Source: an uncultured Chloroflexia bacterium
GTDB taxonomy: Bacteria; Chloroflexota; Anaerolineae; Fen-1058
DNA length: 64,000 nucleotides
Assembly: GCA_963844815.1 (NCBI GenBank)
Contig: CAWJPR010000018.1
Location: 462,498-526,497 of the forward strand
Direction of reading: 5' to 3'
Position numbers and translations under genes: made by a program. This document shows, piece after piece, positions 7,786 to 64,000 of this stretch. Within the stretch, counting starts at the first letter, position 1, and every line of letters begins with the position of its first letter. The notes beneath the pieces were generated by a model. It saw only the letters and a list, made by a program, of their open reading frames with translations, was not told the origin of the DNA and did no database searches.

Positions 7786-7814
7786 GTTATGCGCTGTGTG
7801 AAGTTCGCGCTTAC

Positions 7815-8234
7815 TCAGGGCGCAAACTGCCGCAAGAATTCGTCGGGGGTGATGATTGAAATCCCACGGAAAGGGTTCAAGGTCAATAAATCCTGATCGC
7901 CGCTAATCAGATAAGCAGCCGCGCCGTTGACGGCCAATTCCAAGTACTTGTCATCCTTGGGATCACGGCAGGCATGAATTTCTTCGGCGATTTCAACCAG
8001 CTGGGCCTCACGAACCAGGGCTTCAATGAATCGATCGCGCTCCTGTGGGAGGATATACCGCTCAAACTTCTCGCGGCACAGGACTTCGATCAACTCAGTC
8101 AGCACCGGCAGCGAAATCAAAATGACAGGCTGCTCCAGAGCGAGACGAAAGGCTTGACCCGGCTTCGAGTGCTCAAAGAGCAATGCGCTGATCGCCACAT
8201 TGGCGTCAAAGATGCAGCATGTATCACTCGTCAC
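7815..8234 (-). CDS. vapC: PIN-domain toxin (VapC-like) of a type II toxin-antitoxin pair
   Basis: 139-aa intact ORF with PIN-like acidic residues (IFDANVAISAL..., ...ISGDQDLL); 11-nt overlap with upstream small ORF. Confidence 0.7.
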   Translation of the reverse strand: MTSDTCCIFDANVAISALLFEHSKPGQAFRLALEQPVILISLPVLTELIEVLCREKFERYILPQERDRFIEALVREAQLVEIAEEIHACRDPKDDKYLELAVNGAAAYLISGDQDLLTLNPFRGISIITPDEFLRQFAP

Positions 8235-8451
8235 TGAGCAGATCCTGCAGCATGTGAGGGGTCAAGCCACGCGCCTGTGCATTGCGGCTGATCTCACTCA
8301 TCACGCGCGTGAGGGATTCGGGAGTTCGCGTCGCCTCCAGCAGGCGCAAGCTTAGCAAGGTTTCCAGTTTCCGCCGCATTTCAGGCGTAACCGATGCGAA
8401 GGCGCGAGCCGCTTGTGGATCAACTTGAATTGTGATGGGAATGGTCGTCAT
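8224..8451 (-). CDS. antitoxin partner of the PIN toxin (small, acidic C-terminus)
   Basis: 75-aa ORF immediately upstream of and overlapping the PIN toxin gene; classic TA arrangement. Confidence 0.6.
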   Translation of the reverse strand: MTTIPITIQVDPQAARAFASVTPEMRRKLETLLSLRLLEATRTPESLTRVMSEISRNAQARGLTPHMLQDLLSDE

Positions 8452-8465
8452 TGCGATACCTCCTG

Positions 8466-35839: not shown

Positions 35840-37972
35840 CTACTTGAAATACTGTTGAACTTCGGCGTCGCTCATGATGCCGTCGAGCAGGTACGTGGCC
35901 GGCTTGTCCTTGCACATCGACTCGTACACTTGCTTGAAGTTGTCCTTGGTCACGGTCACGGGCACCGGGATCACAAACGACATATCGTTCGCGCCGCCCA
36001 ATTTGCTCATGTCTACTTGCTTGCCTTGCAGCATATTGTAGGCAATGCGCAAGCCGGTGGGCGACACGCCCGGCGGATTCGCCACAGCGATCGACTCGAA
36101 GTTTGGATCTTTTTGCAGCTGCTCATTCCACAGTTGCAGGAACTGGCAGCGGCCTTCGCCGACGACCGCCGGCCACTTGGCCGGATTTGCCGCCAGCAGC
36201 GCCTGCATCGCGCCGATGGCCATGCCGTCCTGCGTCCAGTACCCGTTCAGATTCGGGAACGACGCCAGGAAGTTCGACATCACTTGCTGGCCGGTGGCCT
36301 CATCCCACTTGCCGGTCTCGGTCGCCAGCACCTTGATGTCGGGATAGTCCTTCAGCACTTCCGCCACGCCTTCCATGCGCGCTACATTGGCGGGATGGCC
36401 GGGGAAGCCCTCGATCTGCACGATGCTGCCCTGGCCGCCCAACTTCTCGGCCAGCCACTTCGCCGACGTCTTCGCCCATTCCTTCTGATCGATGCCCACG
36501 TTGTACACGTTCGGCGTCGCCAGTTCCTGATCCACCGAGATGACGATGATGCCCTTTTTCACCGCCTCTTGCAGCGTGTCGTTCAGCCCGTTGACATCGC
36601 CGGGATTCACCAGGATCGCATCGACGCCCTTGCTCATCAGGTTCTGCAATTGCTGAATCTGGCCGGCCACATCGGTGTCGGCGCTCTCGATCACCAGATC
36701 GTTGGCAATGCCCTTGTCCACGTATTCTTTGTTGATATCCTTGAGCTCCTGAATCATCTGCGTGCGATACTCGCTGCTGATGAACGGATTCGAGATACCC
36801 ACGGTGAATTTCTCGCCGCCGGTCGAGGACGCCGCCGGGGCCTTACCGCCCACAAAGAACTGCTGCACTTCCTCGTCGCTCATGATGCCGTCGAGCAGGA
36901 ACGTGGCCGGCTTGTCCTGGCACGTCGACTCATAGACTTCCTTGAAGTTGTCCTTGGTCACGACCACCGGCACCGGAATCACAAACGATTGGCCGCTCAG
37001 CTTGCTCTTGTCCACTTCCTTGCCTTGCAGCATATTCACCGCGATGCGCAGGCCGGTCGGGGACACGCCCGGCGGATTCGCCACCGCGATCGTCTCGAAG
37101 TTCGGATCGTCCTTCAGACGCTGATCCCACAGTTGCAGGAACTGGCAGCGGCCTTCGCCGACGACCACCGGCCACTTCGCCGGGTTCGCCGCCAGCAGCG
37201 CCTGCATCGCGCCGATCGCCATGCCGTCCTGCGTCCAGTACCCATTCAGATTCGGGAACGACGCCAGGAAGTTCGACATCACTTGCTGCCCGGTCGCCTC
37301 GTCCCACTTGCCGGTCTCGGTCGCCAGCACTTTGATGTCCGGATAGTCCTTCAACACTTCCGCCACGCCGTCCATGCGCGCCACATTCGCCGGGTGGCCG
37401 GGGAAACCTTCGATCTGCACGATGTCGCCCTTGCCGCCCAACTTCTCGGCCAGCCACTTCGCCGACGTCTTCGCCCATTCCTTCTGGTCGATGCCCACAT
37501 TGTATACGCACGGCACGTCCAGTGCCTGGTCCACCGAGATCACGATGATGCCCTTGTCGCACGCTTCCTTCAGCGTGTCATTCAAACCGTTGACATCACC
37601 CGGGTTAACGAGGATGGCATCCACGTTCTTGCTGATCAAGTTTTGCAGTTGTTGAATCTGGCCGGCCACATCGGTGTCGGCGCTCTCGATCACCAGATCA
37701 TTCGTCAGGTCCGCCGCCATGTACTCGGCATTCACGTCCTTCAATTCCTGAATCATCTGCGTGCGATACTCGCTGCTGATGAACGGATTGGAAATGCCGA
37801 TGGTAAATCGTCCACCCGTAACCGGGGCCGCCGTCGGGGCTTCAGCCGGAGCGGTCGTCGGAGCCGCCGCCGGAGCGGTCGTTGGAGCAGCGGCCGGGGC
37901 TTGCGTCGGAGCCGGGGTCGGTGCGGCACACGCTGCCAGCACTTGCGCCACCACCAGCAACAAGACCATCAC
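35840..37972 (-). CDS. periplasmic sugar-binding lipoprotein made of two tandem, about 85-90% identical RbsB-like binding domains (internal duplication); 5' end uncertain
   Basis: Lipobox VAQVLAAC and a Pro/Ala/Thr linker; two about 330-aa halves (GGRFTIGISNPFISSEYRTQMIQELKD... and GGEKFTVGISNPFISSEYRTQMIQELKD...); long identical nucleotide runs between 35.87-36.86 kb and 36.87-37.87 kb. Confidence 0.8.
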   Translation of the reverse strand: MMVLLLVVAQVLAACAAPTPAPTQAPAAAPTTAPAAAPTTAPAEAPTAAPVTGGRFTIGISNPFISSEYRTQMIQELKDVNAEYMAADLTNDLVIESADTDVAGQIQQLQNLISKNVDAILVNPGDVNGLNDTLKEACDKGIIVISVDQALDVPCVYNVGIDQKEWAKTSAKWLAEKLGGKGDIVQIEGFPGHPANVARMDGVAEVLKDYPDIKVLATETGKWDEATGQQVMSNFLASFPNLNGYWTQDGMAIGAMQALLAANPAKWPVVVGEGRCQFLQLWDQRLKDDPNFETIAVANPPGVSPTGLRIAVNMLQGKEVDKSKLSGQSFVIPVPVVVTKDNFKEVYESTCQDKPATFLLDGIMSDEEVQQFFVGGKAPAASSTGGEKFTVGISNPFISSEYRTQMIQELKDINKEYVDKGIANDLVIESADTDVAGQIQQLQNLMSKGVDAILVNPGDVNGLNDTLQEAVKKGIIVISVDQELATPNVYNVGIDQKEWAKTSAKWLAEKLGGQGSIVQIEGFPGHPANVARMEGVAEVLKDYPDIKVLATETGKWDEATGQQVMSNFLASFPNLNGYWTQDGMAIGAMQALLAANPAKWPAVVGEGRCQFLQLWNEQLQKDPNFESIAVANPPGVSPTGLRIAYNMLQGKQVDMSKLGGANDMSFVIPVPVTVTKDNFKQVYESMCKDKPATYLLDGIMSDAEVQQYFK

Positions 37973-48106: not shown

Positions 48107-51100
48107 ATGACTCAAACCAACGAACCTGCAACGAATAAGCAACCCATCGGGGCCGTCATGGTCGTCGGCGGCGGCATCGCCGGGATGCAGTCCGCGCTCG
48201 ATCTGGCCGATCAGGGCTTCAAGGTGTATCTCGTCGAAGCTCAATCGGCCATCGGTGGACACATGGCGCAGCTCGACAAGACCTTCCCCACCAACGACTG
48301 CGCCATGTGCACCATTTCGCCGCGCCTGGTCGAGACGGGCCGGCATCCCAACATCACCTTGATGACCGACAGCGAAGTCCTCGACGTGCAGGGCCAGGTC
48401 GGCGATTTCAACGTGCGCGTGCGACATCATCCGCGCTACATCGATCTTGAAAAGTGCGTCGGCTGTGGCGATTGCGCCAAGGTCTGCCCCATTCTCATTC
48501 CCGACACGTTCAACGAGGGATTGGCGAAACGCCGCGCGGCCTACAAGTTGTATCCGCAGGCCGTGCCCAACGCTTACGCCATCGCCAAGCGCGGCATTGC
48601 CCCGTGCCGGGATGCCTGCCCCGCCGGCCAACGCGCGCAGGGTTATATCGCGCTGATCCGTGAAGGCCGCTGGAATGACGCGCTGCGCGTGATCAAGATG
48701 GACAATCCGTTCCCCGGCATCTGCGGGCGGATTTGCAATCATCGCTGCGAGACGGCTTGCAATCGCGGACAAGTTGACGAGCCGATCAATATCCGCGCGC
48801 TCAAGCGCTTCGTGACCGATAAAGTCTACGCGGAGCCACGCCAATCGGTGGAGCCGCTGCCCCGGAAGTTCGACCAGCGCGTCGCCATTATCGGCGCAGG
48901 GCCGTGCGGCTTGACGGCGGCGCAGGACCTGGTGCGGGCGGGCTTTGGCGTCACCGTCTTCGAAGCGATGCCGGTGGCGGGCGGCATGCTGCGCCTCGGC
49001 GTGCCGGAATACCGCCTGCCGACGGCCATCATCGAGCGTGAAGTGCAGGACATCGTCGATCTCGGCGTCGATCTGCAACTGAATCATCGCATCGACAATC
49101 TCGACGACATCTTCAGCGCAGGCTTCGATTCGGTGCTGATCGCCGTCGGCGCGCACGAGGGCATTCGCCTGCCCATCCCCGGCGCGAACCTCGACGGCGT
49201 GATCATCAATACGCATTTCTTGAGAGATGTGAGATTGGGCAAGTACACTGGTAACTTGGCAGATAGTAAATTGGCAGATGGTAAATTGGGCAATTCGCCC
49301 ATTACCAATTTACCAATCACCAATCTACCAACCGCCTTAGGCAAAAACGTGCTCGTCCTCGGCGGCGGCAATGTGGCCATCGACTGCGCGCGCAGCGCGG
49401 TGCGCCTGGGCCGCCATGTCGAGATGGCGTGCCTCGAAAGCGGCGACAAGGTTCCGGCGCATGCGTGGGAAGTGCAGGCCGCGCAGGAAGAAGGCATCGT
49501 CCTGCATGAGGGCCGTACCTTTGAGCGAGTTCTGAGCGACGATAACGGGCACGTGCGCGGCGTCGAGTGTATGCGCGTCGCCTCGTTCCATTTCGACGAG
49601 ATGGGACGCTTGAACGTCGAGAAAGTGCCGAACTCAACGCACGTGATCGAATGCGATACCGTGATCTTCTCGGTGGGCCAGCGCGCCGGTCTCGCCTTCA
49701 TTCCCGATGATGCCGGTGTGGGCTTGACGGGCCGCAAGCTGATCGCGGTGAATCCCAACACGCTGGCCGCAACGCGCGAAGGCGTATTCGCTGCGGGCGA
49801 TAGTGTCTCGGGCACGGCGTTTGTGATCGAGGCGGTGAACAGCGGCCACACCGCGGCCCGATCGATCATCCGCTATTTGCAGGGCGAGCATCTCGAGCCG
49901 CCGCATCGACCCGATCTGCCGGTCGTGAAGTCTGACGCGCGATGAGATCAACACGCGCATGGCGCGCGGCGAGATCAGCCGCCAGCCGCGCGTCCCCCTG
50001 CCCGAAGTGCCGGTCGCGCAGCGCATCGACAACTTCATCGAGGTCGAAGGCGGCTACGACGATCAATCAGCGCAGCTGGAAGCCGCTCGCTGCCTGGCCT
50101 GCGGCATCTGCTCGGAGTGCATGAGCTGCACGTTTGCGTGCGGCGTCAACGCGATCGATCACAACATGGTCGCGCGCGACGAAAGCGTGCGCGTGGGAGC
50201 CGTCGTGCTCGCGCCCGGTTATCAAGCCTATCGCGCCGAATTGTCCGAAGAATACGGTCTGGGCCGCTACCCGAACGTCGTCACGTCGCTGCAATTCGAG
50301 CGCCTGCTGTCGGCATCGGGACCAACGTTAGGGCACGTGCAGCGCCCATCGGATGCCAGGGGCGCGCAGAAGATCGCGTTTCTGCAATGCGTGGGCAGCC
50401 GCGACCCAGCGCACGATTACTGCTCGTCGGTGTGCTGCATGTACGCGGCCAAGCAAGCGATCATGGCCGTGGAGCACGCCAAGGCGGAAACGCTTCGCGA
50501 CGACGGCCCGCTGCACTGCCAGGTGTTCTTCATGGACACGCGCGCTTACAGTAAGGGTTACGAAGAATACTATCGGCGGGCGGAGAAGAAATACGGCGTG
50601 CAGTACACGCGCTGCCGCATCAGCGATTTGCGCGAGGACCCCGCCACGCACGATTTGATCCTGCGCTACTTCGACGAACAAGGCCAACTGCAGCGCGAGC
50701 GCTTCGATCTTGTCACGCTGTCGATCGGCATGGAGATTTCGCCCAAGGTGCGCGAGTTGGGGCTGCGGCTGGGCATCGAACTGGATGAGTACGGCTTCTG
50801 CCACACGGTGCAGTTCAATCCGCTCGAGACGAGCCGCGCGGGCATCTATGCCGTCGGGCCGTTCCGCGAGCCGAAGGACATCCCCGAATCGATCGTGGAA
50901 GCGAGCGGCGCGGCAGCCGCCGTTGCGGCGCGCCTTGGCGAGGCGCGCTTCACCTTGACGACGCGCAAAGAGTTTCCACCCGAACGTGATATCACGCAGG
51001 AAGAGCCGCGCGTGGGCGTGTTCGTGTGTCACTGCGGATCGAACATCGGCGGCTTCCTCGATGTGCCCGATGTGTCGGCGTATGCGAAGACCCTGCCGAA

Positions 51101-52871
51101 CGTCGTGCATGCCGAAAACAATCTTTACACCTGCTCGCAAGACAGCATCAAGCACATCATCGAGCGGGTGCAGGAACTCAATCTCAATCGCGTGGTCGTA
51201 GCGTCGTGCACGCCCTTGACGCACGAGCCGTTGTTCCAGGATGCGATTCATCAGGCAGGCCTGAATCCGTATTTGTTCGAGATGGCGAACATCCGCAATC
51301 AATGTTCGTGGGTGCATCCGGGCGATTGGGACGGCGCGACGGCGAAAGCGAAGACGCTGGTGCGCATGGCGGCGGCGCGCGCGGCTGAGCTCGAGCCGCT
51401 GCAGACCTCGCAAGTGCCGATCCAGCACGCGGCGTTGATCATTGGCGGCGGAGCGGCGGGCTTGAACGCCGCGTTGTCGCTGGCCGAGCAAGGTTTCCCG
51501 GTGCATCTGATCGAAAAGAGCGATCAGCCTGGCGGCAATCTGCGCCACCTGCATTTCCTGATTGGCGAGGAGCGCAGCCCGCAGGACTATCTGGCGGAAT
51601 TGGTCGATCGCGCCGCACATCACCCGCTGATCACCATTTACCTGCAAACGGAGTTGATCCAGACCGGCGGCTTCAAGGGCAACTTCACGAGCAAGGTGCG
51701 TGATGCGGCCGGCGCCCTGCAAGAGATACAGCACGGCGTGACCATTGTGGCGACGGGCGGCACGGAATACCGAGGTCGCGAGTATAGCTACGGCAAGCAT
51801 CCGGGCATCATGACCCAGTTGGAGTTTGAGGCGCTGCTAAGTGATATGACATCGTCATTGCGAGGAGCATCCTTGCGCGACGAAGCAATCCCCGATGTGG
51901 CAAAGGAGATTGCTTCGCGAAAAAATGCTCGCAATGACGTGGCTTCGGTGGTCATGATCCAGTGCGTCGGCCCGGGCGAGAAATTCTGCTCGCGCCTGTG
52001 CTGCTCGACGGCGCTCAAGAACGCCTTGCAGGTCAAGCAGCTCAATCCCCAGGCCGAAGTCACGATCCTTTATCGCGACATCCGCACCTACGGCTTCAAA
52101 GAGCGCCTGTACACCGCAGCGCGGCGCGCCGGCGTGCGCTTCATCCGCTTCGACTTCGATCACAAACCAACAGTTGACATCAGCGATCAGCCATCAGCCA
52201 TCAGCCATCAGCAAATCATCGTGCGCGTTCACGAGCCGATTCTGAACCGTGAGGTTGAATTGCGTCCTGATCTGCTCGTCCTCAGCACGCCGATCGTGCC
52301 GCAGAAGGACGCGCACCAGCTGGCCGCGCGCCTCAAAGTGCCGCTCGACGCCGACGGCTTCTTCCTCGAAGCGCATCCGAAATTGCGGCCGGTGGACTTC
52401 GCCTCCGACGGGCTGTTCATGGCGGGCGTGGCGCACTATCCCAAGTTCCTCGACGAGACGATCGCGCAGGCGCAGGCGGCCGCGGCGCGCGCGGCGATCA
52501 TTCTCTCGCAAGAGAGCGTGCTGACCAATGCGCGCGTGGCCGTGGTCGATAACACGAAGTGTGTGGGCTGTCTCACCTGTGTGCGCGCGTGCCCGTATGA
52601 CGTGCCGAAAGTCAAGATGAGCTTCACGGGCGTGGGCAATATCACCGGCGCGGCCTACATCGAAGCCGCCATGTGCCAGGGCTGCGGCACCTGCGCCGCC
52701 GAGTGCCCGGCCCAGGCGATCCAGTTGATGCACTATCGGGATGCGGAGATGCTGCCCAAGATCGACGCCTTGTTCGGGTTGCAGCCGGGAGTAGTCAGTA
52801 GTCAGATTTCAGAAGACAGTACGCAGTCGGGCACATACTGGCTAATGCCCAAGGAGAGCGAGCGTGCATAA
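48107..52871 (+). CDS. giant HdrA-family flavoprotein, copy 1: HdrA N-half + inserted GltD-like NAD(P)H oxidoreductase module (HdrL-like) + HdrA C-half, fused in-frame to a second complete HdrA; one apparent frameshift near 49930
   Basis: VMVVGGGIAGMQSALDLADQGF, TNDCAMC and CVGCGDCAKVCP (HdrA N-half). CRDACPAGQRAQGY...GICGRICNHRCETAC...IIGAGPCGLTAA (GltD-like). Then, in the ORF 49959 frame, ARCLACGICSECMSCTFAC...FLQCVGSRD...YCSSVCCMYAA (HdrA C-half). This is followed by VGVFVCHCGSNIGG, ANIRNQCSWVH, IIGGGAAGLNAAL, IQCVGPGEKFCSRLCCS and a C-terminal 2x[4Fe-4S] domain (complete second HdrA). Confidence 0.8.
51854..51938. repeat. family-A REP/MITE-like palindrome inserted IN-FRAME inside hdrA copy 1 (GTCATTGCGAGGAGCATCCTTGCGCGACGAAGCAATC ... 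GAGATTGCTTCGCGAAAAAATGCTCGCAATGAC)
   Basis: Encodes ...MTSSLRGASLRDEAIPDVAKEIASRKNARNDVAS... between conserved QLEFEALLSD and VVMIQCVGPGEKF. Confidence 0.75.
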
Positions 52872-53256
52872 GTTCAGGGAATTAAAAGTCTGGCAGCGAT
52901 CGATGGATTTGATAGTCGAAGTTTATCAGCTCACCCAGACTTTTCCGCAGGCGGAACAACTTGGACTGATCAGCCAGTGCGACGGGCAGCCGTCTCAATT
53001 TCGTTGAACATTGCTGAGGGTGCGGGCAGCGGCACCGATCCTGAATTTCGGTGCTTCTGGCGCATGGCGCTGCGTTCCTGTTACGAAGTGATGACCGGCC
53101 TGGAAATTGGCCACCGTTTGGGCTACTGCGACGATCGACGTGTGAATACCTTGATTCCAGAAGCGGACGAGATCGCTGCCATGATCGTTGGTCTTAGCCG
53201 CGGCCTATCCGAGAAGTAATCTGACTACTGACTTCTGACTACTGACTACTGGAGAC
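52795..53256. mobile_element. small cassette carrying the four-helix-bundle gene, flanked by inverted simple repeats (GTAGTCAGTAGTCAG / CTGACTACTGACTTCTGACTACTGACTACTGG), inserted at the 3' end of hdrA copy 1
   Basis: Inverted (CTGACTA)n-type arms at 52795-52809 and 53223-53255. The hdrA copy-1 ORF is extended by about 25 codons encoded by the left arm, relative to copy 2. Confidence 0.5.
52864..53219 (+). CDS. four-helix-bundle protein (TIGR02436-like, '23S rRNA intervening-sequence protein' family); apparent frameshift near 52975
   Basis: VHKFRELKVWQRSMDLIVEVYQLTQTFPQAEQLGLISQ, then in the next frame RRAAVSISLNIAEGAGSGTDPEFRCFWRMALRSCYEVMTGLEI...; GTG start overlaps the hdrA stop. Confidence 0.65.
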
Positions 53257-53260
53257 ACCT

Positions 53261-53719
53261 TTGAGCAACAATGGATTCGAACCGAACATCATAGCGTTCT
53301 GCTGTCACTACTGCGCGTACGCCGCCGCCGATCTGGCCGGGTCGATGCGCCTCGAATACCCGACGGCGGTGAAGATCGTCGAGCTGCCCTGCACCGGCAA
53401 ACTCGACGTGCTCTACGTCTTGCGCGCGTTCGAGGACGGCGCCGACGGCGTGCTGGTGGCGGGTTGACTGGAAGGCGAATGTCATTACCTGGAAGGTAAT
53501 CTCAACGCCCGCCGGCGAATTGAATACGCGCAGAAACTGTTGGAGCAGATCGGATTGCAGGGCCGCCGCGTCCAGATGATCAACCTGTCGTCGGCGATGG
53601 GCGGCCAGTTCGCGTTCTCGATCGCGGAATTGACCGCGGAGATCAAGCAGCTGGGGCCGAACCCATTGGGCATTAAAGACCTGGCAGGTTCTTCTGCGCC
53701 TGAAGGCGAAACTCGATAG
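53261..53719 (+). CDS. mvhD: MvhD-like protein (methyl-viologen-reducing hydrogenase delta subunit family; HdrA electron-transfer partner) with in-frame TGA (putative selenocysteine) at the conserved Cys of the AG[C/U]..G.CHY motif
   Basis: FCCHYCAYAAADLAG...VELPCTGKLDVLYVLRAFEDGADGVLVAG-TGA(53465-53467)-LEGECHYLEGNLNARRR...; the frame is conserved through the TGA. Confidence 0.75.
53474..53509 (+). promoter_or_regulatory. putative bacterial SECIS hairpin downstream of the mvhD UGA (copy 1)
   Basis: ggcg-aatgtc-attacc-tggaa-ggtaat-ctcaa-cgcc; the core gtcattacctggaaggtaatctcaacgc is nucleotide-identical in the paralogous copy. Confidence 0.5.
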
Positions 53720-53793
53720 ACTAACGTGTGATGTTGGCAAGCAAGACCAGACAGAGAGTGAAAACCTGCCAGGTCTACCCACAGAGGTAAAAG

Positions 53794-54189
53794 ATGGACA
53801 AGCAGCCGTACATCATCATCACCGACGACGATCCCGACATCATTGAGAACCTGGTTACCATTCTCGGCACCCGGCCCTATCGGCTGGGGACGGCGCGCGA
53901 TGGCAAGCAGTGCCTGGCGCTGATCAGACAGGAGCAGCCCGATCTGCTGATCCTCGACATGCTGATGCCGCGCATGGACGGCTGGGGCGTGATCCGCGAA
54001 CTGCGCAGCGATCCGTTGTATGCCGATTTGCCGATCATGGTGTTGACCACCGTCGTCGAAGACGCCAGCCGCCGCCGCTACGAACTGGAAGTCGGCATGG
54101 AGATGGACGTGCAGGACTACCTGCAGAAACCGGCCAAGCCCGCCGAGCTGCTGCAGCGTGTCGAGAAACTGCTGAAGGTCCATGCTTAA
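53794..54189 (+). CDS. response regulator, receiver domain only (CheY-like)
   Basis: IIITDDDPDI...LILDMLMPRMDGW...KP signature residues. Confidence 0.8.
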   Translation: MDKQPYIIITDDDPDIIENLVTILGTRPYRLGTARDGKQCLALIRQEQPDLLILDMLMPRMDGWGVIRELRSDPLYADLPIMVLTTVVEDASRRRYELEVGMEMDVQDYLQKPAKPAELLQRVEKLLKVHA

Positions 54190-55384
54190 CCCAGCGATCA
54201 CGTCCATCTCAATCCGAGTTGACCGCCTGCGCCGATCGGAAATCTTCAGCGAGCTGGCCGAGGCCGACCTGTTGGCTATCGCCGAGCTCTGCGCCGAGGA
54301 ACGCTACGACGAGGGTGAGGCGGTGCTGTCTGAAGGCGCGCCCGCCGCCGCGGTGTTCGTCGTCGAGCGCGGCAAACTCGCCCTGGAGAAGAAGATCCAG
54401 ATCGGGCGGCACTCGACGCCGCGCAATGCGACCATCGACTACGTCGAGCCGGGCAAGACGGCGGGATTCTCGGGGTTGGTGGCGCCGTTTGTCTATTCCA
54501 CATCCGCCGTCTGCCTGGAGCCGACGCGCGTCCTGCGCGTCGACGGCCCGGCGCTGCGCGCCTACCTCGCAGCGCATCCGGCCGCGGGCGTGAAAGTGTT
54601 CACGGCGGTAGCCGAATTGATCAGCGATCGCTATCGCCACTCGATCGATACCTTGACTTACTTTTTGTCGGTCGTGTCGCACGAACTCCGCTCGCCGCTG
54701 GCCGCGGTCGAGAATTATCTGCAGACGCTGCTGGGCGGCTACGCCGGCGAGCTCACCGACAAGCAGCAGCACATGATGACGCGCTGCGTGCTGCGGGTGA
54801 CCGATCTGCGCGGGCTGATCGGCGACGTGGTCGATCTGGCGCGCATGCGGCCCGAGCAGATTCAGGCCGACTTCGAATGGTTCGATCCCGGCGAGGTGGG
54901 CACCGAGTCGATCGAGGATGCGCGGTTGGCGGCCGCCGAAAAAGGGATTCACCTCAAGATCGAAGCGCCGCCGAAGTTCGAACCGATCGTCGGCGCGCGG
55001 CGGCGCATGCGCCAGGTGTTTACGAACCTGCTGAACAACGCGGTCAAGTATGCGCCGCCCGACAGCATCGTGACGATTCGCGCGTGGTACGCGCCGGACA
55101 CGCTGTATTTTGAAGTCGAGGACGAAGGTCCCGGGATTCCGGCCGAAGATGTGCCGCACGTTTTCGAGGAATTCTTTCGCTCCGAAAGCACGAGTGATAC
55201 GCCGGGCGTCGGTCTCGGCCTGTCAATCGCCCAGAAGATCGTCGCTGCGCACCACGGCGAAATCACTGTAAAGAGCGTGCATGGTTTTGGGGCCACAGGC
55301 ACCCGTTTCACCGTCACCATCCCGCGCAACTTGCAGACGCCGGAGATGCGGCGGCGCGAATGGATGATGACAGGCAATGAGTGA
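54182..55384 (+). CDS. sensor histidine kinase with an N-terminal cyclic-nucleotide-binding (cNMP/CAP-like) domain
   Basis: cNMP-like SEIFSELAEADLLAIAELCAEERYDEGEAVLSEG; H-box VSHELRSPL; N-box and G-boxes (NLLNNAVKYA, GVGLGLSI). Confidence 0.8.
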   Translation: MLNPAITSISIRVDRLRRSEIFSELAEADLLAIAELCAEERYDEGEAVLSEGAPAAAVFVVERGKLALEKKIQIGRHSTPRNATIDYVEPGKTAGFSGLVAPFVYSTSAVCLEPTRVLRVDGPALRAYLAAHPAAGVKVFTAVAELISDRYRHSIDTLTYFLSVVSHELRSPLAAVENYLQTLLGGYAGELTDKQQHMMTRCVLRVTDLRGLIGDVVDLARMRPEQIQADFEWFDPGEVGTESIEDARLAAAEKGIHLKIEAPPKFEPIVGARRRMRQVFTNLLNNAVKYAPPDSIVTIRAWYAPDTLYFEVEDEGPGIPAEDVPHVFEEFFRSESTSDTPGVGLGLSIAQKIVAAHHGEITVKSVHGFGATGTRFTVTIPRNLQTPEMRRREWMMTGNE

Positions 55385-55435
55385 CGAGTGATAAGTAACG
55401 AGTAATGGATTACGTATTACGCACTACTCGTTATC
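55377..55435. repeat. family-B repeat: AATGAGTGACGAGTGATAAGTAACGAGTAATGG ... CACTACTCGTTATC upstream of hdrL copy 2; supplies the histidine-kinase stop codon
   Basis: read directly. Confidence 0.65.
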
Positions 55436-55497
55436 ATAGATGAATCGACATGACTTAAGCCAGTGACACGCAATCAAATAAGCAGCCTATCGGCGCC

Positions 55498-58400
55498 GTG
55501 ATGGTCGTCGGCGGCGGCATCGCGGGGATGCAGGCCGCGCTCGATCTGGCCGATCAGGGCTTCAAGGTCTACCTCGTCGAGGAGAAATCGGCGATCGGCG
55601 GCCACATGGCGCAGCTCGATAAGACGTTCCCGACCAACGACTGCGCGATGTGCAACATCAGCCCGAAGTTGGTGGACGTGGGCCGCCATCTCAACATCGA
55701 GATTCTCACCGACACGGACGTGCTCGGCGTCACCGGACAGGCCGGCAATTTCACGGTGTCCGTGCGCCGCCGGCCGCGCTACGTCGACGTGGCGAAGTGT
55801 ATCGGCTGCGGCGACTGCGCGCAGGTGTGTCCGGTGTCGCTGCCCAACTTGTACGAAGAGCAGCTGAAGGATCGCAAGGCCGCGTATCGCTTGTACACGC
55901 AGGCCGTGCCCTCGGCCTATGCGATCGACAAACGCGGCGTCGCGCCGTGTCGCGATGCCTGTCCAGCGGGTCAGCGCGCGCAGGGTTACATCGCGTTGAT
56001 CGCGCAGGGGCGCTACCGCGAAGCGTTCCGCGTCATCAAAGAGGACAATCCGTTCCCCAGCGTCTGCGGGCGCACGTGCCACCATCCGTGCGAAGGGCAC
56101 TGCACGCGCGCCATGGTCGACGAAGCGGTCGGCATCATGTCGCTCAAGCGCTTCGTGATCGATCACGCCCTCGCCTACGGGCGCGAGAAGGTCGAGCCCG
56201 CGGCGCGCACGCGGCCCGCATGGATCGCCGTCGTCGGCGCGGGCCCGGCCGGCCTTACCGCCGCGCACGATCTGGCGAAGCTGGGCTACGGCGTCACCGT
56301 GTACGAAGCGCTGCCGGTAGCGGGCGGCATGATGCGCGTCGGCATCCCGGCGCACCGCCTGCCCAAAGGCGTGCTGCAGCAGGACATCGACGACATCCTG
56401 GCGTTGGGCGTCGTCCTCAAGACCAACTCTCCGGTCAAAGACCCGGCCGAGCTGCTCAAGCGTGGCTACAACGCGGTGTGCCTGGCGACGGGCATCTCGT
56501 CGCGCGATCAAGCGATCGGGATTGAAGGTGAAAACGCCGCGGGCGTCATCCCCGCTGCGACGTTCCTGCGCAAGGTCAATCTGGGCGAGCCGGTCACGAT
56601 CGGGGATCGCGTGGCCGTGATCGGCGGGGGCATCACGGCGCTGGATGCGGCCGCCGTCGCGCGCCGCCTGGGCGCCGAGGTTTACCTGGTGCTCGATCGG
56701 CCTCGCGGCGAGATTCCGGCCTACGAAGTGGAGATGAACGCGGTTGAAGCAGAGGGCATTCATCTCTTCGAGCGCACGACCGCGACGCGCATCCTGGCGC
56801 AGAATGGCAAAGTCACCGGCGTCGAGCTGGCGCAGACCGAAGGCGGCCTGACGACCGACGAGCGCGGCCGCCGCCGTCCGATGATCAAACCCGGCTCTGA
56901 ATTCACGTGCGAGGTCGATACCGTGATCGGCACGGTCGGCCAGTTCTCCGATCTGTCGTTCCTCGATCAGCGCTACGACGATCTCACGGTCGATAAGCAC
57001 ACGCTGGCGAGCGACATCCCCGGCCTGTTCGTGGTGGGCGGCCGCAAGACCGGCGCGAGCTATATCATCGAGGCGGTGGCGCTGGGGCATCGCGTCGCCG
57101 CGTCGATCGATCGTTACTTGCAGGGCCAGCCGCTGAAACACGCTGCGCCGCCCGCCCCGCCGGTCGTGAAATTCGCGCGCGAAGAGCTGGCGCAGAAAGT
57201 GACTGCGCGGCGAGATTCGTTTGCAGCCGCGCACGCAGCCGGCCCTGCTGCCGATGGAAGAGCGCGTGACCAGCTTCCGCGAAGTGGTGCTGGGGCTCAC
57301 CGAGCGGCAGGCGCGCGCCGAAGCGCAGCGCTGCCTGCAATGCGGCCTGTGCTCCGAATGCCTGGCGTGTGTCTATGCCTGCGGCGTCGACGCGATTGAT
57401 CACAACGCGGTCGCGCGCGAGGAGCAGATCGATGTCGGCGCCGTCATTCTCGCGCCGGGTTATCAGGCTTACCAGGCCGCCCTGTCACGCGAATACGGCT
57501 TCGGCCGTTATCCGAACGTGATCACGGCGCTGCAATTCGAGCGCTTGCTGTCGGCGTCCGGCCCGACCCTGGGGCATGTGCGCCGGCCGTCGGATCAACG
57601 TGAACCGCAGCGCGTCGCGTTCCTGCAGTGTGTCGGCTCGCGCGATCAGGCGCACGATTACTGCTCGGCGGTGTGCTGCATGTACGCGACGAAGGAAGCG
57701 GTCATCGCCAAAGAACACCAACCCGATCTGGACGTGCACGTCTTCATGATGGACATGCGCGCCTTCAGCAAAGGCTATTGGTCCTACTTCGAGCGCGCGC
57801 GCGATCAATACGGCGTGCACTACCATCGCTGCCGCGTCAGCGAACTGCACGAAGACCCAGCGACGCATAATCTGCTCATTCGATATCAGGGCGATCAGCA
57901 ATCTCGCGGGGATAGTGGGCACTCGGCACTCAGCATTCAGCATTCAGCAATCAGCACTCAAGAATTCGATCTCGTCGTGTTATCCGTCGGAATGGAAATC
58001 TCAGAGTCTGTTCGCGCGTTAGGCAAGCGCCTGGGCGTCGAACTCGACGAGTACGGCTTCTGCCACACGGTGCAATTCAACCCGATCGAAACGAGTCGTC
58101 CGGGCATCTATGCGGTCGGCCCGTTCCGCGAGCCGAAGGACATTCCCGAATCCGTCGTGGAGGCGAGCGGTGCAGCGGCGGCGAGCGCGGGCCTGCTGGC
58201 CGGCGCCCGCTGGTCCCTGACGCGCACCCGTGAGTACGCGGCCGAACGCGACGTCGCACATGAAGAACCGCGGATCGGCGTGTTCGTGTGCCACTGCGGA
58301 TCGAACATCGCCGGTTACCTCGACGTGCCTGCCGTGACCGAGTATGCGCGCGCGCTGCCGCACGTCGTCCACGCCGAAGACAAGCTGTATGCCTGCTCGC

Positions 58401-60180
58401 AGGATTCGATCAAGTTGATTACCGAGCGCGTGCAGGAACATCACCTCAACCGCGTGGTCGTCGCCAGCCTGCACGCCGCTGACGCATCAGCCCTTGTTCC
58501 AGGACAGCATCCGCAACGCCGGGTTGAATCCGTACCTGTTCGAGATGGCGAACATCCGCAATCAATGCTCGTGGGTGCACTCGCACGAACCGGATGTCGC
58601 CACCGAGAAAGCGCAGGACCTCGTGCGCATGTCCGTCGCGCGCGCGGCGCTGCTTCAACCTCAACACACGTTCACGGTGCCGGTCAAGCACGCGGCGCTG
58701 ATCGTCGGCGGCGGCGTGGCGGGCATGACGGCGGCACTCTCGTTAGCCGAGCAGGGCTTTCCCGTTCACTTGGTCGAGAAGGAAGCGGAGCTCGGCGGCA
58801 ATCTGCGGCAGGCGTTCCTGCCGTCCAACGGCAAAGAGCCGCAAATCATCCTGACGCAACTGGTTGATCAAGTTCAACACAACTCGCTCATCACCGTTCA
58901 TCTCGAAAGCCGGGTCGTGTCGACCGGCGGCTTTATGGGCAACTTCGAAAGCAAGATGCGTGATGCAAGAGGCATACTGCAGGAAGTGCAGCACGGCGTG
59001 ACAATTTTAGCCACCGGCGCCCAGGAATATCGCGGATCGGACTACGGTTTCGGCACGCACCCGAGGATTATCACGCAACAACAGTTTGAGAGAATGCTGA
59101 CCAAAGGGTGTCATTCCCCCCAGCGCGCCCCCGCTGAGAAGCAGCGGACAGGGCGTGAGGCGCGTAGCGCCGAAGAATCTCTACCGCCGACGAACAGCGC
59201 TACCGATCAGAGCCGAGATTCTTCGCTCCCCGCAAAGCGGGTCGCTCAGAATGACACGGCCAGAAATGAGCCGCTCGCCATTCCGAATTCCGAATTCCGA
59301 GTTCAGAATTCCGTCGTCATGATCCAGTGCGTCGGCCCGGCTGAGAAGTTCTGCAGCCGTATCTGCTGCGCCGAGGCGCTAAAGAATGCCATTGCACTGA
59401 AAGCGCAGCAGCCCGAGGCACAGGTTGTCATTCTCTACAAGGATATCCGCACCTATGGCTTCAAAGAGCGGCTCTATACAACTGCCCGCCAGCATGGCGT
59501 CATCTTCATGCGCTATGATGATAATCATCGGCCAGAGGTAGTAGTCAGCAATCAGCAGTCAGCAATCAGCAGTTCAGGCCTGGGATTCCATTCTGCAACG
59601 TTCCATCATCCTGCAACCCAATCTACTCGTCCTGTCAATGCCCGTGGTGCCACGCGACGACGCGCACGAGGTCGCCAAGTTGTTCAAGGTCTCGCTCGAC
59701 GCCGACGGTTTCTTCCTCGAAGCACACGTGAAATTGCGGCCGGTTGATTTCGCATCCGACGGCGTGTTCATGGCGGGCATGGCGCATTATCCCAAGCTGT
59801 TGGACGAGACGATGATTCAGGCGCAGGCGGCTGCCTCGCGCGCGGCGAGAGTGCTGAGCCACGAATCGCTCACGGCAGGCGGGCGCGTCGCCGTGGTGGA
59901 CGATGCGAAGTGCACCGGCTGCCTGACGTGCGTGCGCATCTGCCCCTTCGGCGTGCCGAAGATCAAAGCGAACTTGACCGGCGTGGGCCACATCGTCGGC
60001 GCGGCCTATATCGAAGCAGCCGTGTGCCAGGGCTGCGGCTCGTGCGTGGCCGAATGTCCTGCGCAGGCGATCCAGTTGATGCATTACACTGATGCGCAGA
60101 TGGTCGCAAAGATTCAGGCGCTGATGCGGCCGTCGGGCGGGTTTGTACCAGTCGATGAGATAGCGGCGAGTGGAAACTAA
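55498..60180 (+). CDS. giant HdrA/HdrL-like + HdrA fusion, copy 2 (same architecture as copy 1); three apparent frameshifts (about 57217, 58466, 59575) and a TAA at codon 3 of the ancestral start
   Basis: ORFs 55498-57399, 57221-58867, 58494-59747 and 59638-60180 align co-linearly with copy 1. Upstream in-frame ATG ACT TAA (55450-55458) corresponds to the ATG ACT CAA start of copy 1. Confidence 0.7.
59109..59256. repeat. family-A REP/MITE-like palindrome inserted IN-FRAME inside hdrA copy 2 at the homologous position (GTGTCATTCC...GAAGAATCTC ... GAGATTCTTCG...CAGAATGACAC)
   Basis: Encodes ...GCHSPQRAPAEKQRTGREARSAEESLPPTNSATDQSRDSSLPAKRVAQNDTARNE... followed by the tandem repeat cattccgaattccgaattccgagttcagaattccg (59278-59312). 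Confidence 0.75.
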
Positions 60181-60251
60181 CGCAGTGAAGCACTTGCCGT
60201 CTTAGCAGGTAAGTCCATCATTTGAAAGAGATAGCAGTGAGTAATCGCTAA

Positions 60252-60713
60252 ATGGATACAGCATCAAGTGCAGTTCAAACAAAACTGAATATCATCGCCT
60301 ACTGCTGTGAGCACTGCGCTTACGCCGCGGCCGATCTGGCGGGTGGATTGCGGATGCAATACCCGCCCGCGATCAAGATCGTGCAGATACCCTGCACGGG
60401 CCGCATGGATGTGCTGACCGTGTTGCGGGCCATCGAGGACGGCGCGGACGGCATCATGGTGGCGGGTTGACTGCCCGGCGACTGTCATTACCTGGAAGGT
60501 AATCTCAACGCAAAACGCCGGGTGGCCCATGTGCAGGATGTGCTGAAGAACATCGGGCTGGAGCCCGAGCGCGTGCAGATGTTCAACCTGTCCTCGGCAA
60601 TGGCGGGACGATTTGCCGAGGCGACGAAAGAGATGACGGAAAAGATTGAGGAGTTGGGCCCAAATCCATTGAGAGAAGAGATGACAAAGCGATCCACGAA
60701 TGAACACGAATGA
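60252..60713 (+). CDS. mvhD: MvhD-like protein, copy 2, with in-frame TGA (putative selenocysteine) at the same position
   Basis: YCCEHCAYAAADLAG...VQIPCTGRMDVLTVLRAIEDGADGIMVAG-TGA(60468-60470)-LPGDCHYLEGNLNAKRR... Confidence 0.75.
60475..60521 (+). promoter_or_regulatory. putative bacterial SECIS hairpin downstream of the mvhD UGA (copy 2)
   Basis: ccggcg-actgtc-attacc-tggaa-ggtaat-ctcaacgcaaaa-cgccgg. Confidence 0.5.
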
Positions 60714-60783
60714 ACACGAACAAAAAATCATTCGAGAAGATTCGTGGAGATTCGTGCGATCAGCCTTTAGCATTGAACGGAGG

Positions 60784-61473
60784 ATGAACATGATCGTAGC
60801 CGAACAGAAACCCCTGGCAGAAATCAAGACGCTGGTCGCCAACGCGCAGAAAGTGCTGGTGGTCGGGTGCGGCACGTGCGTAACGGTGTGCTTTGCGGGC
60901 GGCGCGCGTGAAGCCGCCATCACCGCCTCGTCGCTGCGCATGGCCACCAAGCTCGACGGCAGCGGCAAGGAGGTCGCCGACGTGACCGTGCAGCGCCAGT
61001 GCGAGTGGGAATACCTTGACGAGATCGCGCCGCAAGTCGGCGAGGTCGACGTCGTCCTTTCGCTGGGCTGCGGCATCGGCGTGCAGGCCATGGCCGAGCA
61101 TTTTCCCAACGCGTGGATCGTGCCGGGCCTCAACACCAGCTTCCTGGGCATGCCGACCGAGCAAGGGGTATGGGCCGAGCGCTGCGCCGCCTGCGGCGAT
61201 TGCATCCTCGGCCTGACGGGCGGCATCTGCCCGATCGCGCGCTGCTCCAAGTCGCTGCTCAACGGGCCGTGCGGCGGATCGGAGAACGGCCACTGCGAGA
61301 TCAATGCCGAGGTGCCGTGCGCCTGGCAGCTGATCTACGACCGCTTGAGCAGCATGGGCAAACTCGACCAGCTGCTGGAGATTCAGCCGCCCAAGAACTG
61401 GCGCACGGCGCGCGATGGCGGCCCGCGCAAAATCGTTCGGCCCGATCTGAGACTGGCTTCGGAAGAAGAATAA
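60784..61473 (+). CDS. metV: MetV (methylene-tetrahydrofolate reductase C-terminal-domain, zinc-ribbon protein; MetF partner)
   Basis: VVGCGTCVTVC...CAACGDCILGLTGGICPIARCSKSLLNGPCGGS..GHCE, hallmark of the MTHFR_C/MetV family; GGAGG RBS. Confidence 0.8.
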   Translation: MNMIVAEQKPLAEIKTLVANAQKVLVVGCGTCVTVCFAGGAREAAITASSLRMATKLDGSGKEVADVTVQRQCEWEYLDEIAPQVGEVDVVLSLGCGIGVQAMAEHFPNAWIVPGLNTSFLGMPTEQGVWAERCAACGDCILGLTGGICPIARCSKSLLNGPCGGSENGHCEINAEVPCAWQLIYDRLSSMGKLDQLLEIQPPKNWRTARDGGPRKIVRPDLRLASEEE

Positions 61474-61476
61474 TTC

Positions 61477-61546
61477 AATGCGGAACGTGGAATGCGGAGT
61501 GCGGAATACGCCATTCCGAGTTCCGAATTCCGCATTCCGAATTGAA
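61477..61546. repeat. imperfect palindrome built from (G)CGGAAT / ATTCCG units between metV and metF (hairpin; related to the tandem ATTCCGAATTCCG run inside hdrA copy 2)
   Basis: caatgcggaacgtggaatgcggagtgcggaatacgccattccgagttccgaattccgcattccgaattg. Confidence 0.65.
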
Positions 61547-61557
61547 CGGAGGAAACA

Positions 61558-62592
61558 ATGGCTCCACAGCCCAATGGCAACGGTTACCTGTCTGGATCAA
61601 ATCTGGAGAAGGTGCTCAAGAACGGCCACTTCGCCGTCACGGCCGAGCTCGGTCCGCCGCAGAGCGCCGATGGTGAGGTCATTCGCAAGAAAGCCAAACT
61701 GCTTAAAGGCAACTGCGACGCGGTGAACATCACCGACAACCAGACGGCCATCGTGCGCATGTCGAGCATCAGCGCGGGGACGATCGTGGTGCAGGAAGGG
61801 CTGGAGCCGATCATCCAGATGACCTGCCGCGATCGCAACCGGCTGGCGATACAGAGCGATCTGCTCGGCGCCTACGCGCTGGGCATGCGCAACCTGTTGT
61901 GCCTGTCGGGCGATCACCAGACGTTCGGCAATCATCCCGGCGCCAAGAACGTTTTTGACATGGACTCGATCCAGCTGGTGCAGATGGTGGCGGCGATGCG
62001 CGATCAGCACGTGTTCCAGAGCGGCGACGCCTTCAAGGGGCCGGAACCGCGCTTCTTCGTCGGCGCCGCCGAATCGCCCTTTGCCAACCCGGTCGAGTTT
62101 CGCCCCCTGCGGCTGGCCAAGAAAGTCAAAGCAGGCGCGAACTTCATCCAGACGCAGTTGATCTACGACATCGAAGCATTCACGGCGTTCATGGCGAAAG
62201 TGCGCGAGCTCGGCCTGCACGAGAAAGTCTACCTCCTGGCCGGAGTCGGCCCGTTGAAGAGCCCGATGATGGCGCGTCATATGAAAGACAACGTGCCGGG
62301 CCTGCGCATACCCGATCAGATCATCGCTCGGATGGAAGCCGCCGGCGCGCCGTGGGCCAGCAAGTCGAAAGACGAATTGACGAAGGAAGACAGAAAGGCC
62401 CGAATGATTGCCTGGCAGCATGAAGGGATCAAGATCTGCATCGAGCTGATCCAGCAGATCCGCGAGATCGAAGGCGTGGCCGGCGTGCACATCATGGCCA
62501 TCGAGTGGGAAGAGGCCGTGAAGCCGATCGTGGAAGGCGCGGGCCTGCTGCCCCGGCCGATCGTGACAGAGACGGTCGCAACGCTGACATGA
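61558..62592 (+). CDS. metF: methylenetetrahydrofolate reductase
   Basis: 344-aa MTHFR TIM barrel (…AVNITDNQTAIVRMSS…, …IQTQLIYD…). Confidence 0.85.
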   Translation: MAPQPNGNGYLSGSNLEKVLKNGHFAVTAELGPPQSADGEVIRKKAKLLKGNCDAVNITDNQTAIVRMSSISAGTIVVQEGLEPIIQMTCRDRNRLAIQSDLLGAYALGMRNLLCLSGDHQTFGNHPGAKNVFDMDSIQLVQMVAAMRDQHVFQSGDAFKGPEPRFFVGAAESPFANPVEFRPLRLAKKVKAGANFIQTQLIYDIEAFTAFMAKVRELGLHEKVYLLAGVGPLKSPMMARHMKDNVPGLRIPDQIIARMEAAGAPWASKSKDELTKEDRKARMIAWQHEGIKICIELIQQIREIEGVAGVHIMAIEWEEAVKPIVEGAGLLPRPIVTETVATLT

Positions 62593-63151: not shown

Positions 63152-63253
63152 CAGAGATACCTGTCGTTGAAGATACACCTATCGCTGCCTGACTGCTGGG
63201 CAAGAGCGGTAGGTGAAAGACCACCGGGCAGATAAGGCTGTGAGGAGGCGCAC

Positions 63254-64000
63254 ATGAGTGAATCAACACCGATCAATTCTGAACTGGCTCGCCGGGTGCA
63301 GGACGAAACCGGGCAGAATGTTCATCTGTGTTATCAGTGCGTCAAGTGCACCAGCGGCTGTCCGGTTGCGGAGTTCTTCGACTGGCAGCCCAACCAGATC
63401 ATGCGCGCCTTGCAGTTGGGGCAGGAAGACATTGCCCTGCATTCGCAGACGCCGTGGCTGTGCGCCTCGTGCCAGACCTGCACCACCCGCTGTCCGCAGG
63501 GCCTGGACATCACGGCGATCATGGAGTTCCTGACGCGCGAGGCGAAGGCGCGCGACATCGAACCGCAGGTGCCCGAGGTCAACATCTTCAACGAAGCGTT
63601 CCTGCGCGAAATCAAGTTGTGGGGCCGCGCTTACGAGCTGGGCCTGATGGCCGAGATGAAACTGCGCACAGGCAACATCATGGGCGATATGGACCTGGGC
63701 GTGAAGATGCTGCGCAAGCGCAAGATGCCGTTTCTGCCGCATCCTACCCGCCCGCCGCACAACGTCAAACCCGTCAGCGGCGCGACGAATGCCGTAGCCT
63801 ACTATCCGGGCTGCTCGCTGCATTCGACGGCAACGGAGTTCAACGCATCGACGCACGCGGTCTGTGAGGCGCTCGATCTGAAATTGATCGAGCCGCACGG
63901 CTGGATTTGCTGCGGCAGTTCCGCCGCACACCGCGCCGACCCCGACGAAGCGCTGCGGCTGCCGCTGGAAAACCTGGCTATCGTCGAGCAGAGCGGCTTC
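63254..64000 (+). CDS. hdrCB: fused heterodisulfide reductase subunits C and B (HdrCB), 3'-truncated by the window end
   Basis: GAGGAGG RBS; HdrC motifs CYQCVKCTSGCP and CASCQTCTTRCP; HdrB CCG-domain start YYPGCSLHS...WICCGS. Confidence 0.8.
   Translation, partial: MSESTPINSELARRVQDETGQNVHLCYQCVKCTSGCPVAEFFDWQPNQIMRALQLGQEDIALHSQTPWLCASCQTCTTRCPQGLDITAIMEFLTREAKARDIEPQVPEVNIFNEAFLREIKLWGRAYELGLMAEMKLRTGNIMGDMDLGVKMLRKRKMPFLPHPTRPPHNVKPVSGATNAVAYYPGCSLHSTATEFNASTHAVCEALDLKLIEPHGWICCGSSAAHRADPDEALRLPLENLAIVEQSGF

Follow-up and report, generated by a model that had tools for sequence, protein, structure and literature searches.

Two mvhD paralogues of an uncultured Anaerolineae bacterium very probably encode selenoproteins read through an in-frame UGA and a bacterial SECIS hairpin

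We analysed a 64,000-nucleotide stretch of DNA, hereafter the window, from an uncultured Chloroflexia bacterium (Chloroflexota; Anaerolineae; assembly GCA_963844815.1, contig CAWJPR010000018.1, positions 462,498 to 526,497 of the forward strand). The window holds two paralogous genes, mvhD_A and mvhD_B, for [2Fe-2S] subunits of the MvhD/FrhD family, and each carries an in-frame TGA followed by the same hairpin. We conclude that both genes very probably encode selenoproteins, with UGA read as selenocysteine (Sec) by way of a bacterial selenocysteine insertion sequence (bSECIS). The evidence lies chiefly in the conservation of the TGA and of the hairpin among related genomes, and is given first below; the neighbouring genes and the remainder of the window follow.

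Results

Both mvhD genes carry a TGA at a conserved cysteine column

An earlier note on this DNA, drawn up from its letters alone, had reported an in-frame TGA at the conserved cysteine of both mvhD paralogues and a frame that stays MvhD-like beyond it. Both statements hold. Translation gave one in-frame TGA per gene, at the reported positions and in an otherwise invariant Cys column, followed by an open frame to the normal C-terminus (VLVAG, TGA, LEGECHYLEGNLNARRR in mvhD_A; IMVAG, TGA, LPGDCHYLEGNLNAKRR in mvhD_B). With Cys put at the TGA position for the profile search, both products matched Pfam PF02662 (FlpD, delta subunit of methyl-viologen-reducing hydrogenase) over its full length (profile positions 1–123 of 123), scoring 159.1 bits for mvhD_A (E = 6e-47) and 167.4 bits for mvhD_B (E = 2e-49) against a cut-off of 22.3. 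The TTG start of mvhD_A aligns with the ATG of a homologue (P0005), and the two genes are 71% identical in nucleotides. The predicted Sec-site peptides are VLVAG-U-LEGECHYLEGNLNAR and IMVAG-U-LPGDCHYLEGNLNAK, respectively, in full-length MvhD proteins of about 16 kDa.

A search of a protein collection returned thousands of full-length homologues, chiefly from metagenome-assembled genomes (MAGs) of Chloroflexota/Anaerolineae. In an alignment of 24 Cys-type homologues, the TGA column was Cys in all, the lone exception being P0001, a metagenomic protein 83% identical to that of mvhD_B, which the gene call gives as W. The DNA behind P0001 (locus L001) has TGA at this position, then the same hairpin, with synonymous differences around it; L001 is an independent metagenomic contig and so gives separate evidence against a sequencing error at the TGA. 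In this locus (positions 676–1119; Joint Genome Institute (JGI) metagenome 3300082317) the public gene call renders the Sec-TGA as Trp (VAGWLPGDCHYL), suggesting that public protein sets contain Sec-type MvhD proteins in mis-translated or truncated form, which would hide how common they are.

The aligned proteins share the conserved cysteines for a [2Fe-2S] cluster plus one extra, in the pattern CCxxC ... PC ... G-C/U-xxGxC-H, with C19, C22, C48 and C78 invariant. Homologues in the PDB match the window MvhDs at E values of 1e-40 to 1e-32, and the five conserved columns map to C13, C16, C42, C67 and C72 of M. marburgensis MvhD, the Sec column being Cys67 (9SW2 chain D). An alignment with VhuD had been put forward in the earlier note as a way to confirm that the Sec and Cys columns correspond. 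In VhuD of M. maripaludis (9SFI/9T1S chain K) the TGA column is occupied by an X (VAG-X-KPNEC), which we read as Sec. The MvhD/FrhD family is itself listed in a review as an experimentally verified selenoprotein.

An identical hairpin follows each TGA

Beyond the TGA, the two genes are identical over a run of 29 nt, TGTCATTACCTGGAAGGTAATCTCAACGC (53480–53508 and 60483–60511). This length had been given correctly before, although the string then quoted had lost its leading T and was 28 nt long. The paralogues also agree over 17 nt (TGGTGGCGGGTTGACTG) that include the TGA. Outside the 29-nt segment, they share 36 of the 70 codons at which they encode the same residue, as compared with nine consecutive shared codons inside it (0.514^9 = 0.0025). 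The 17-mer core of the hairpin occurs exactly twice in the window, against an expectation of zero from shuffled sequences.

The hairpin, AUUACCU-GGA-AGGUAAU, has a 7-bp stem and starts 16 nt past the UGA. RNA folding of the downstream regions of both genes gave this stem, a GGA loop and a lower GGCG/CGCC or CCCGGCG/CGCCGGG stem (−19.5 and −23.3 kcal/mol), reproducing the fold that the earlier note had drawn. In the mvhD_A element the lower helices are GGCG/CGCC (53474–77 with 53506–09) and CUGG/CCGG, with a minimum free energy (MFE) of −18.6 kcal/mol over 50 nt, and in the mvhD_B element a 10-bp lower stem pairs CUGCCCGGCG with CGCCGGGUGG. The published bSECIS model specifies a loop of 3–9 nt with G in its first two positions, an upper stem of 4–16 bp, a UGA-to-loop distance of 16–37 nt and an MFE of at most −7.5 kcal/mol (PMC13188914). 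The window elements agree with all four constraints, having a GGA loop, a 7-bp upper stem, a UGA-to-loop spacing of 23 nt and an MFE of −10.2 to −22.2 kcal/mol (36–55-nt elements), and the U-GGA-A of the hairpin also fits the bSECIS pattern N1 G [G/U] N N2. Searches of Rfam, with the whole window at the gathering threshold and with both sites at E ≤ 1, returned no match, a result that is uninformative because bacterial SECIS elements have no Rfam family.

The hairpin is conserved together with the TGA

We compared the locus with the 80 loci most similar to the query from a scan of species-representative genomes, a sample that is not unbiased. Across 82 distinct orthologous sequences, the column was TGA in 53, TGC or TGT in 29 and TAA or TAG in none. 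The complete 7-bp stem was present in 50 of the 53 TGA forms as compared with 1 of the 29 Cys forms (Fisher p = 1.8e-17). This association also held within phyla: all three Desulfobacterales TGA forms had the complete stem and none of that clade's Cys forms did, and the stem was lost in six of seven Chloroflexota Cys forms.

Codons +6 to +11 were close to frozen in the TGA forms (CAT, 53/53; TAC, 50/50; CTG, 51/51; GAA, 46/50; GGT, 50/53; AAT, 53/53), as against a third-position variation of 1–1.9 bits in the flanking codons of the same forms and free variation of the same six codons in the Cys forms. Where the stem did change, pairing was kept. Three Desulfobacterales loci (L031, L075 and L080) have AUUUCCU/AGGAAAU, an A-U to U-A compensatory swap in which a Tyr-to-Phe change is matched by a synonymous one, GGU to GGA, so that pairing is restored, and a second compensated pair (U-A to A-U) was found in L024. 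A covariance model built from the TGA forms scored these at 62–81 bits and most Cys forms at 15–50 bits, recovered a further TGA form (L044) and matched the window at the two mvhD sites only; with covariance model R1, the mvhD_A element scored 81 bits and the mvhD_B element 78.5 bits. The footprint of a functional SECIS that had been claimed for the identical segment is therefore backed by the TGA-linked hairpin, the frozen synonymous sites, the compensatory changes and the fit to the bSECIS constraints.

The nearest relative, L002 (10001–10429; GCA_964398185.1), has a single mvhD with TGC in the column and a complete ‘fossil’ SECIS hairpin. The N-terminal half of its MvhD is MvhD_A-like and the C-terminal half MvhD_B-like, and the segment corresponding to the response regulator, histidine kinase and hdrL_B genes of the window is absent. 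This arrangement suggests that the paralogues recombined within the SECIS segment they share, causing the deletion, and that Sec was also changed to Cys.

Points against selenocysteine and alternative explanations

Several observations weigh against reading the two genes as selenoprotein genes. Single-sequence folding z-scores are weak (−1.7 and −2.0), so that folding energy alone is not convincing and the weight of the evidence lies with the comparative data. The apical hairpin by itself is also weak (−5.1 kcal/mol), and the lower helix is partly conserved, 24 of the 53 sequences being unpaired at one of its pairs. L002, a Cys form, keeps the complete hairpin, and a hairpin by itself is thus no proof of recoding. 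No selA, selB, selD or tRNA(Sec) gene was found within the 64-kb window (ARAGORN; NCBIfam, 40 window open reading frames (ORFs)), nor did ARAGORN detect any tRNA, tRNA(Sec) included, there or in 50 loci that carry the TGA. Finally, the window contains several 1-nt frame breaks, and its sequence quality or the integrity of its genes is imperfect.

The alternative that survives best is that UGA is recoded through the hairpin and that Cys (or Trp) is inserted in place of selenocysteine, either by a tRNA(Sec)-like opal-suppressing tRNA(Cys) with a second SelB or by near-cognate read-through. A selC* tRNA(Cys)UCA with selB* is known from Syntrophobacterales and Desulfobacterales and can insert Cys at Sec-UGA (PMC5389517); Cys works at this column, where it is found in 29 homologues, and the window contains no sel gene. 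However, the selC* system has been reported only beside a complete Sec apparatus and not in Chloroflexi, in which a genuine tRNA(Sec) has been reported, and the solved archaeal structure has an X, which we read as Sec, at this column. If the product carried Cys, moreover, nothing would be gained by using TGA with a costly hairpin in place of TGC, and yet 53 lineages have retained TGA. We consider Cys or Trp insertion improbable.

Still less probable, in our judgement, is that the identical 29-nt segment reflects gene conversion, or a codon choice forced by the peptide CHYLEGNLNA, and not a functional RNA element. The peptide is indeed identical in both copies, the L002 mvhD is an A/B hybrid joined in this very segment, so recombination does occur there, and L002 retains the hairpin in its Cys form. 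Yet the Cys forms that encode H-[YF]-x-x-G-N use CAC, GGC/GGA/GGG and AAC freely, 28 of 29 being without the stem, whereas in TGA forms the very same nucleotides are retained across four phyla. The compensatory double changes keep the pairing, and the A- and T-ending codons of the hairpin oppose the bias of the window genes, whose GC content at third codon positions is about 0.8.

That the TGAs are nonsense mutations or sequencing errors, making the mvhD genes pseudogenes or mis-called TGC/TGT forms, could be argued from the four 1-nt frame breaks in two adjacent hdrL genes and the apparent breaks in an aldehyde:ferredoxin oxidoreductase (AOR) gene, but is effectively refuted by the comparative data, since the same column is TGA, and always TGA, in both paralogues, an independent metagenome contig and 50 other genomes, the downstream frame is open and conserved to the normal C-terminus, and the other defects are indels and not substitutions.

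Reassignment of the genetic code was rejected, as TGA is the ordinary stop in 14 of the 34 confident window genes. Across the whole window, a scan for further in-frame TGAs with coding-like sequence around them left only the two mvhD sites: the other candidates showed the pattern of antisense shadow frames, with high GC at first codon positions, and a TGA at 3102–3104 between two long ORFs of the same frame was set aside because the AOR homology continues in another frame.

Proposed decoding and role of the residue

For the preferred reading, with selenocysteine at the UGA, we propose that the codon would be decoded by Sec-tRNA(Sec) delivered by SelB. SelB would be recruited by the intra-coding bSECIS hairpin 16 nt past the UGA, the stem of which would be built from the codons for His-Tyr-Leu-Glu-Gly-Asn (CAU UAC CUG GAA GGU AAU). 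A tRNA(Sec), including one of 8/4 type, has been reported in Chloroflexi, as have Sec-containing formate dehydrogenases in Anaerolineae.

The inserted Sec would stand where M. marburgensis MvhD has Cys67. In that protein the [2Fe-2S] cluster feeds electrons towards the HdrA flavin, and Cys16, of the CxxC motif, is described as an additional, non-ligand cysteine between the cluster and the flavin adenine dinucleotide; the CxxC-motif residue equivalent to Cys16 is the Sec of BamF. With five conserved Cys/Sec columns and Cys16 a non-ligand, elimination leaves Cys13, Cys42, Cys67 (the Sec column) and Cys72 as ligands. We infer that Sec would be one of the four ligands of a [2Fe-2S] cluster from which the HdrA-like flavoprotein receives electrons. 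Cys67 adjoins His68 and Asp71, which contact an unknown ligand held by Cys202/Cys205 of HdrA. We put at about even the chance that Sec is a direct ligand, giving a naturally selenolate-ligated Fe-S cluster, and that the Sec form is the majority in the sampled Anaerolineae HdrL-MvhD-MetVF systems. Each of the two MvhDs may work with its own NAD(P)H-linked HdrL (GltD-HdrA fusion) module; the modules are paralogous, and the second would be coupled to the MetV-MetF methylene-tetrahydrofolate (methylene-THF) reductase.

The two mvhD genes lie in paralogous clusters

Both mvhD copies follow an HdrA-like gene (Table 1), as is true of nearly all related loci. Cluster A consists of hdrL_A, a small ORF of the 23S rRNA-intervening-sequence family and mvhD_A, without metVF. 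Cluster B consists of hdrL_B, mvhD_B, metV, metF and an HdrC/B-like gene and fits a MetFV-HdrABC-MvhD-type operon; the TGA stop region of mvhD_B overlaps the start of metV. The order hdrL-mvhD-metV-metF-hdrCB is kept in most related loci, the HdrC/B-like orthologue following metF in L002 and most others. The order of a Sec-type mvhD, response regulator, histidine kinase, gltD and hdrA recurs in L025, L030, L055 and L085.

Table 1. Coordinates of the mvhD genes, their predicted recoding elements and neighbouring genes in the window
Feature	Positions	Strand	Description
mvhD_A	53261–53719	+	MvhD/FrhD-family [2Fe-2S] subunit gene; TTG start, TAG stop; 152 aa including predicted Sec69
In-frame TGA, mvhD_A	53465–53467	+	Predicted selenocysteine codon
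bSECIS of mvhD_A (predicted)	53468–53517	+	Apical hairpin 53484–53500 (AUUACCU GGA AGGUAAU)
mvhD_B	60252–60713	+	Second MvhD/FrhD-family gene; ATG start; 153 aa including predicted Sec73
In-frame TGA, mvhD_B	60468–60470	+	Predicted selenocysteine codon; same alignment column as the mvhD_A TGA
bSECIS of mvhD_B (predicted)	60471–60525	+	Apical hairpin 60487–60503; MFE −22.2 kcal/mol
hdrL_A	48107–52871	+	GltD/NfnB-like NAD(P)H module and large HdrA-like flavoprotein (Pfam)
23S rRNA-intervening-sequence-family ORF	52977–53219		PF05635, four-helix bundle; truncated, profile positions 35–105 of 106
Response regulator and cyclic-nucleotide-binding histidine kinase	53794–54189 and 54182–55384	+	Between the two clusters (53794–55384); Pfam
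hdrL_B	55459–60180	+	Paralogous gene upstream of mvhD_B, putative GltD-HdrA fusion (tblastn)
metV	60700–61473	+	DUF5981; downstream of mvhD_B; Pfam, NCBIfam
metF	61558–62592	+	Methylene-THF reductase; downstream of mvhD_B; Pfam, NCBIfam
HdrC/HdrB-like Fe-S/CCG protein gene	63236–64000	+	NCBIfam HdrC, GlpC; cut off by the window end

The GltD and HdrA modules are both present and adjacent in the window with their frames broken, once in hdrL_A and three times in hdrL_B. Orthologues of hdrL are single ORFs, of 1642 aa in L002 and in frame in L007, L008, L011 and L013. hdrL_A reads as two ORFs (48107–49945 and 49959–52871) with a 1-nt insertion at about 49931; against the intact L002 fusion its parts are 87% and 82% identical (tblastn), the frame changing from 2 to 3 at 49930/49932. 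Around this break (49926–49945) the sequences are AAGTCTGACG versus AAGTTGACG. hdrL_B has +1 breaks at about 57203, 58467 and 59571 (in the stretches 57195–57210, 58460–58475 and 59545–59575), of which one falls within the conserved motif VVVAS-C-TPLTHQ and the third within a heptamer repeat. The earlier note had also stated that the remaining frame breaks of the window are not TGAs, and in these two large genes all of them are indeed 1-nt shifts. Either assembly errors or genuine pseudogenisation could account for them.

Tandem arrays of 7-nt units (CATCAGC, CTGACTA, GCACTCA, ATTCCGA and TCAGCAA; 4–6 copies) occur in the spacers and within the hdrL frames, at 52178–52212, 53221–53251, 57919–57960, 59280–59313, 59545–59571 and 61477–61543. 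Gaining or losing units within a coding array would shift the frame, and the array at 59545–59571 coincides with a frame break. The PF05635 ORF is inserted between hdrL_A and mvhD_A.

Other features of the window

A low-GC island at about 5900–12600 (0.43–0.48, against 0.60 for the window) contains short ORFs only, among them a PIN-domain toxin (7815–8234, minus strand) and nine others without a Pfam match, and may be foreign or mobile DNA. At 1566–4652 the AOR gene is apparently split over frames: its N-terminal 221 aa match in one frame, and the typical C-terminal segment (FDYATAREFESVGERINTLARLFNVREG) lies in another frame from 3100. On the minus strand, a 710-aa ORF (35840–37972) with two tandem RbsB-type periplasmic sugar-binding domains lies within a sugar ATP-binding cassette transporter operon, where its neighbours are two permeases and an ATPase.

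Discussion

What we describe is a known kind of gene, correctly identified in a new genome. The identification is correct but ordinary, because the same arrangement is found in dozens of related genomes and the family has long been known to contain selenoproteins. By 2006 FrhD/MvhD already ranked third in number among bacterial selenoprotein families, and its form in Moorella contains Sec (PMC1794560); Desulfobacterium autotrophicum has hdrL-mvhD with four Sec-containing mvhD genes (PMC2702500).

The window genes share with mvhD1, mvhD2, mvhD3 and mvhD5 of D. autotrophicum HRM2 the family (COG1908/PF02662), a single in-frame UGA and an intragenic stem-loop, and with the FrhD of Syntrophobacter, Syntrophus and Moorella the family and an in-frame UGA followed by an intragenic stem-loop (PMC1794560). 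In bacterial FrhD/MvhD selenoproteins the gene lies directly downstream of hdrA or of hdrL (a glutamate-synthase-HdrA fusion), as it does here, and the three Desulfobacterales orthologues have TGA in the same column with the compensated version of the same hairpin. The window differs from the known bacterial cases in its host, which is Chloroflexota/Anaerolineae-like, and in having the gene twice, in tandem clusters. VhuD of M. maripaludis is homologous over its whole length (E = 1e-38) and has its second X, read as Sec, at the TGA column. It differs in having a further Sec in an N-terminal CxxU, where the window proteins have Cys, in an archaeal SECIS located in the 3′ untranslated region, whereas the window elements lie just after the UGA, and in its partner, a [NiFeSe] hydrogenase or formate dehydrogenase and not MetFV.

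As an RNA element, the hairpin resembles the consensus bacterial SECIS (bSECISearch; the prototype being that of E. coli fdhF) in its location within the ORF directly after the UGA and in a small loop starting with GG, but it has no sequence similarity to the fdhF SECIS. Because of its overlap with the conserved CHYLEGN motif, its nucleotides differ unusually little from phylum to phylum, and it is a clean natural case of an RNA structure and a metal-binding peptide motif on the same nucleotides.

A MetFV-HdrABC-MvhD methylene-THF reductase is known from Moorella thermoacetica, and an hdrABC-mvhD-metVF cluster is described from marine Anaerolineae single-cell genomes and MAGs (PMC5736913); the passages of that 2017 paper matching our search terms do not mention Sec in MvhD. 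Cluster B has in common with these systems an HdrA-type flavoprotein, mvhD, metV, metF and an HdrC/B-like gene. It differs in its GltD/NfnB-like NAD(P)H module, which lies next to HdrA and would be fused to it (HdrL type), and the window further differs in having a second hdrL-mvhD pair upstream, without metVF, and a two-component system between the two.

A 2026 review places Sec-containing hydrogenase-type subunits exclusively in sulfate reducers and methanogens. The nearest loci here are all Anaerolineae MAGs, and TGA forms make up the majority of the closest Chloroflexota orthologues in our sample, which holds the 80 loci with the greatest similarity to the query. As a minor new point, these Chloroflexota loci show that Sec-containing MvhD/FrhD is not confined to methanogens and sulfate reducers.

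Our current understanding of Sec decoding is unchanged by these genes. In practical terms, each mvhD should be annotated as one selenoprotein, of 152 or 153 aa, where standard gene callers truncate it, split it or read the TGA as Trp, as JGI did for P0001. For the biology of the group, the related loci show Sec-type MvhD to be a frequent member of those Chloroflexota operons in which NAD(P)H, an HdrA-type bifurcating flavoprotein and methylene-THF reductase are linked, and selenium availability may therefore matter for one-carbon metabolism in these abundant sediment and subsurface bacteria.

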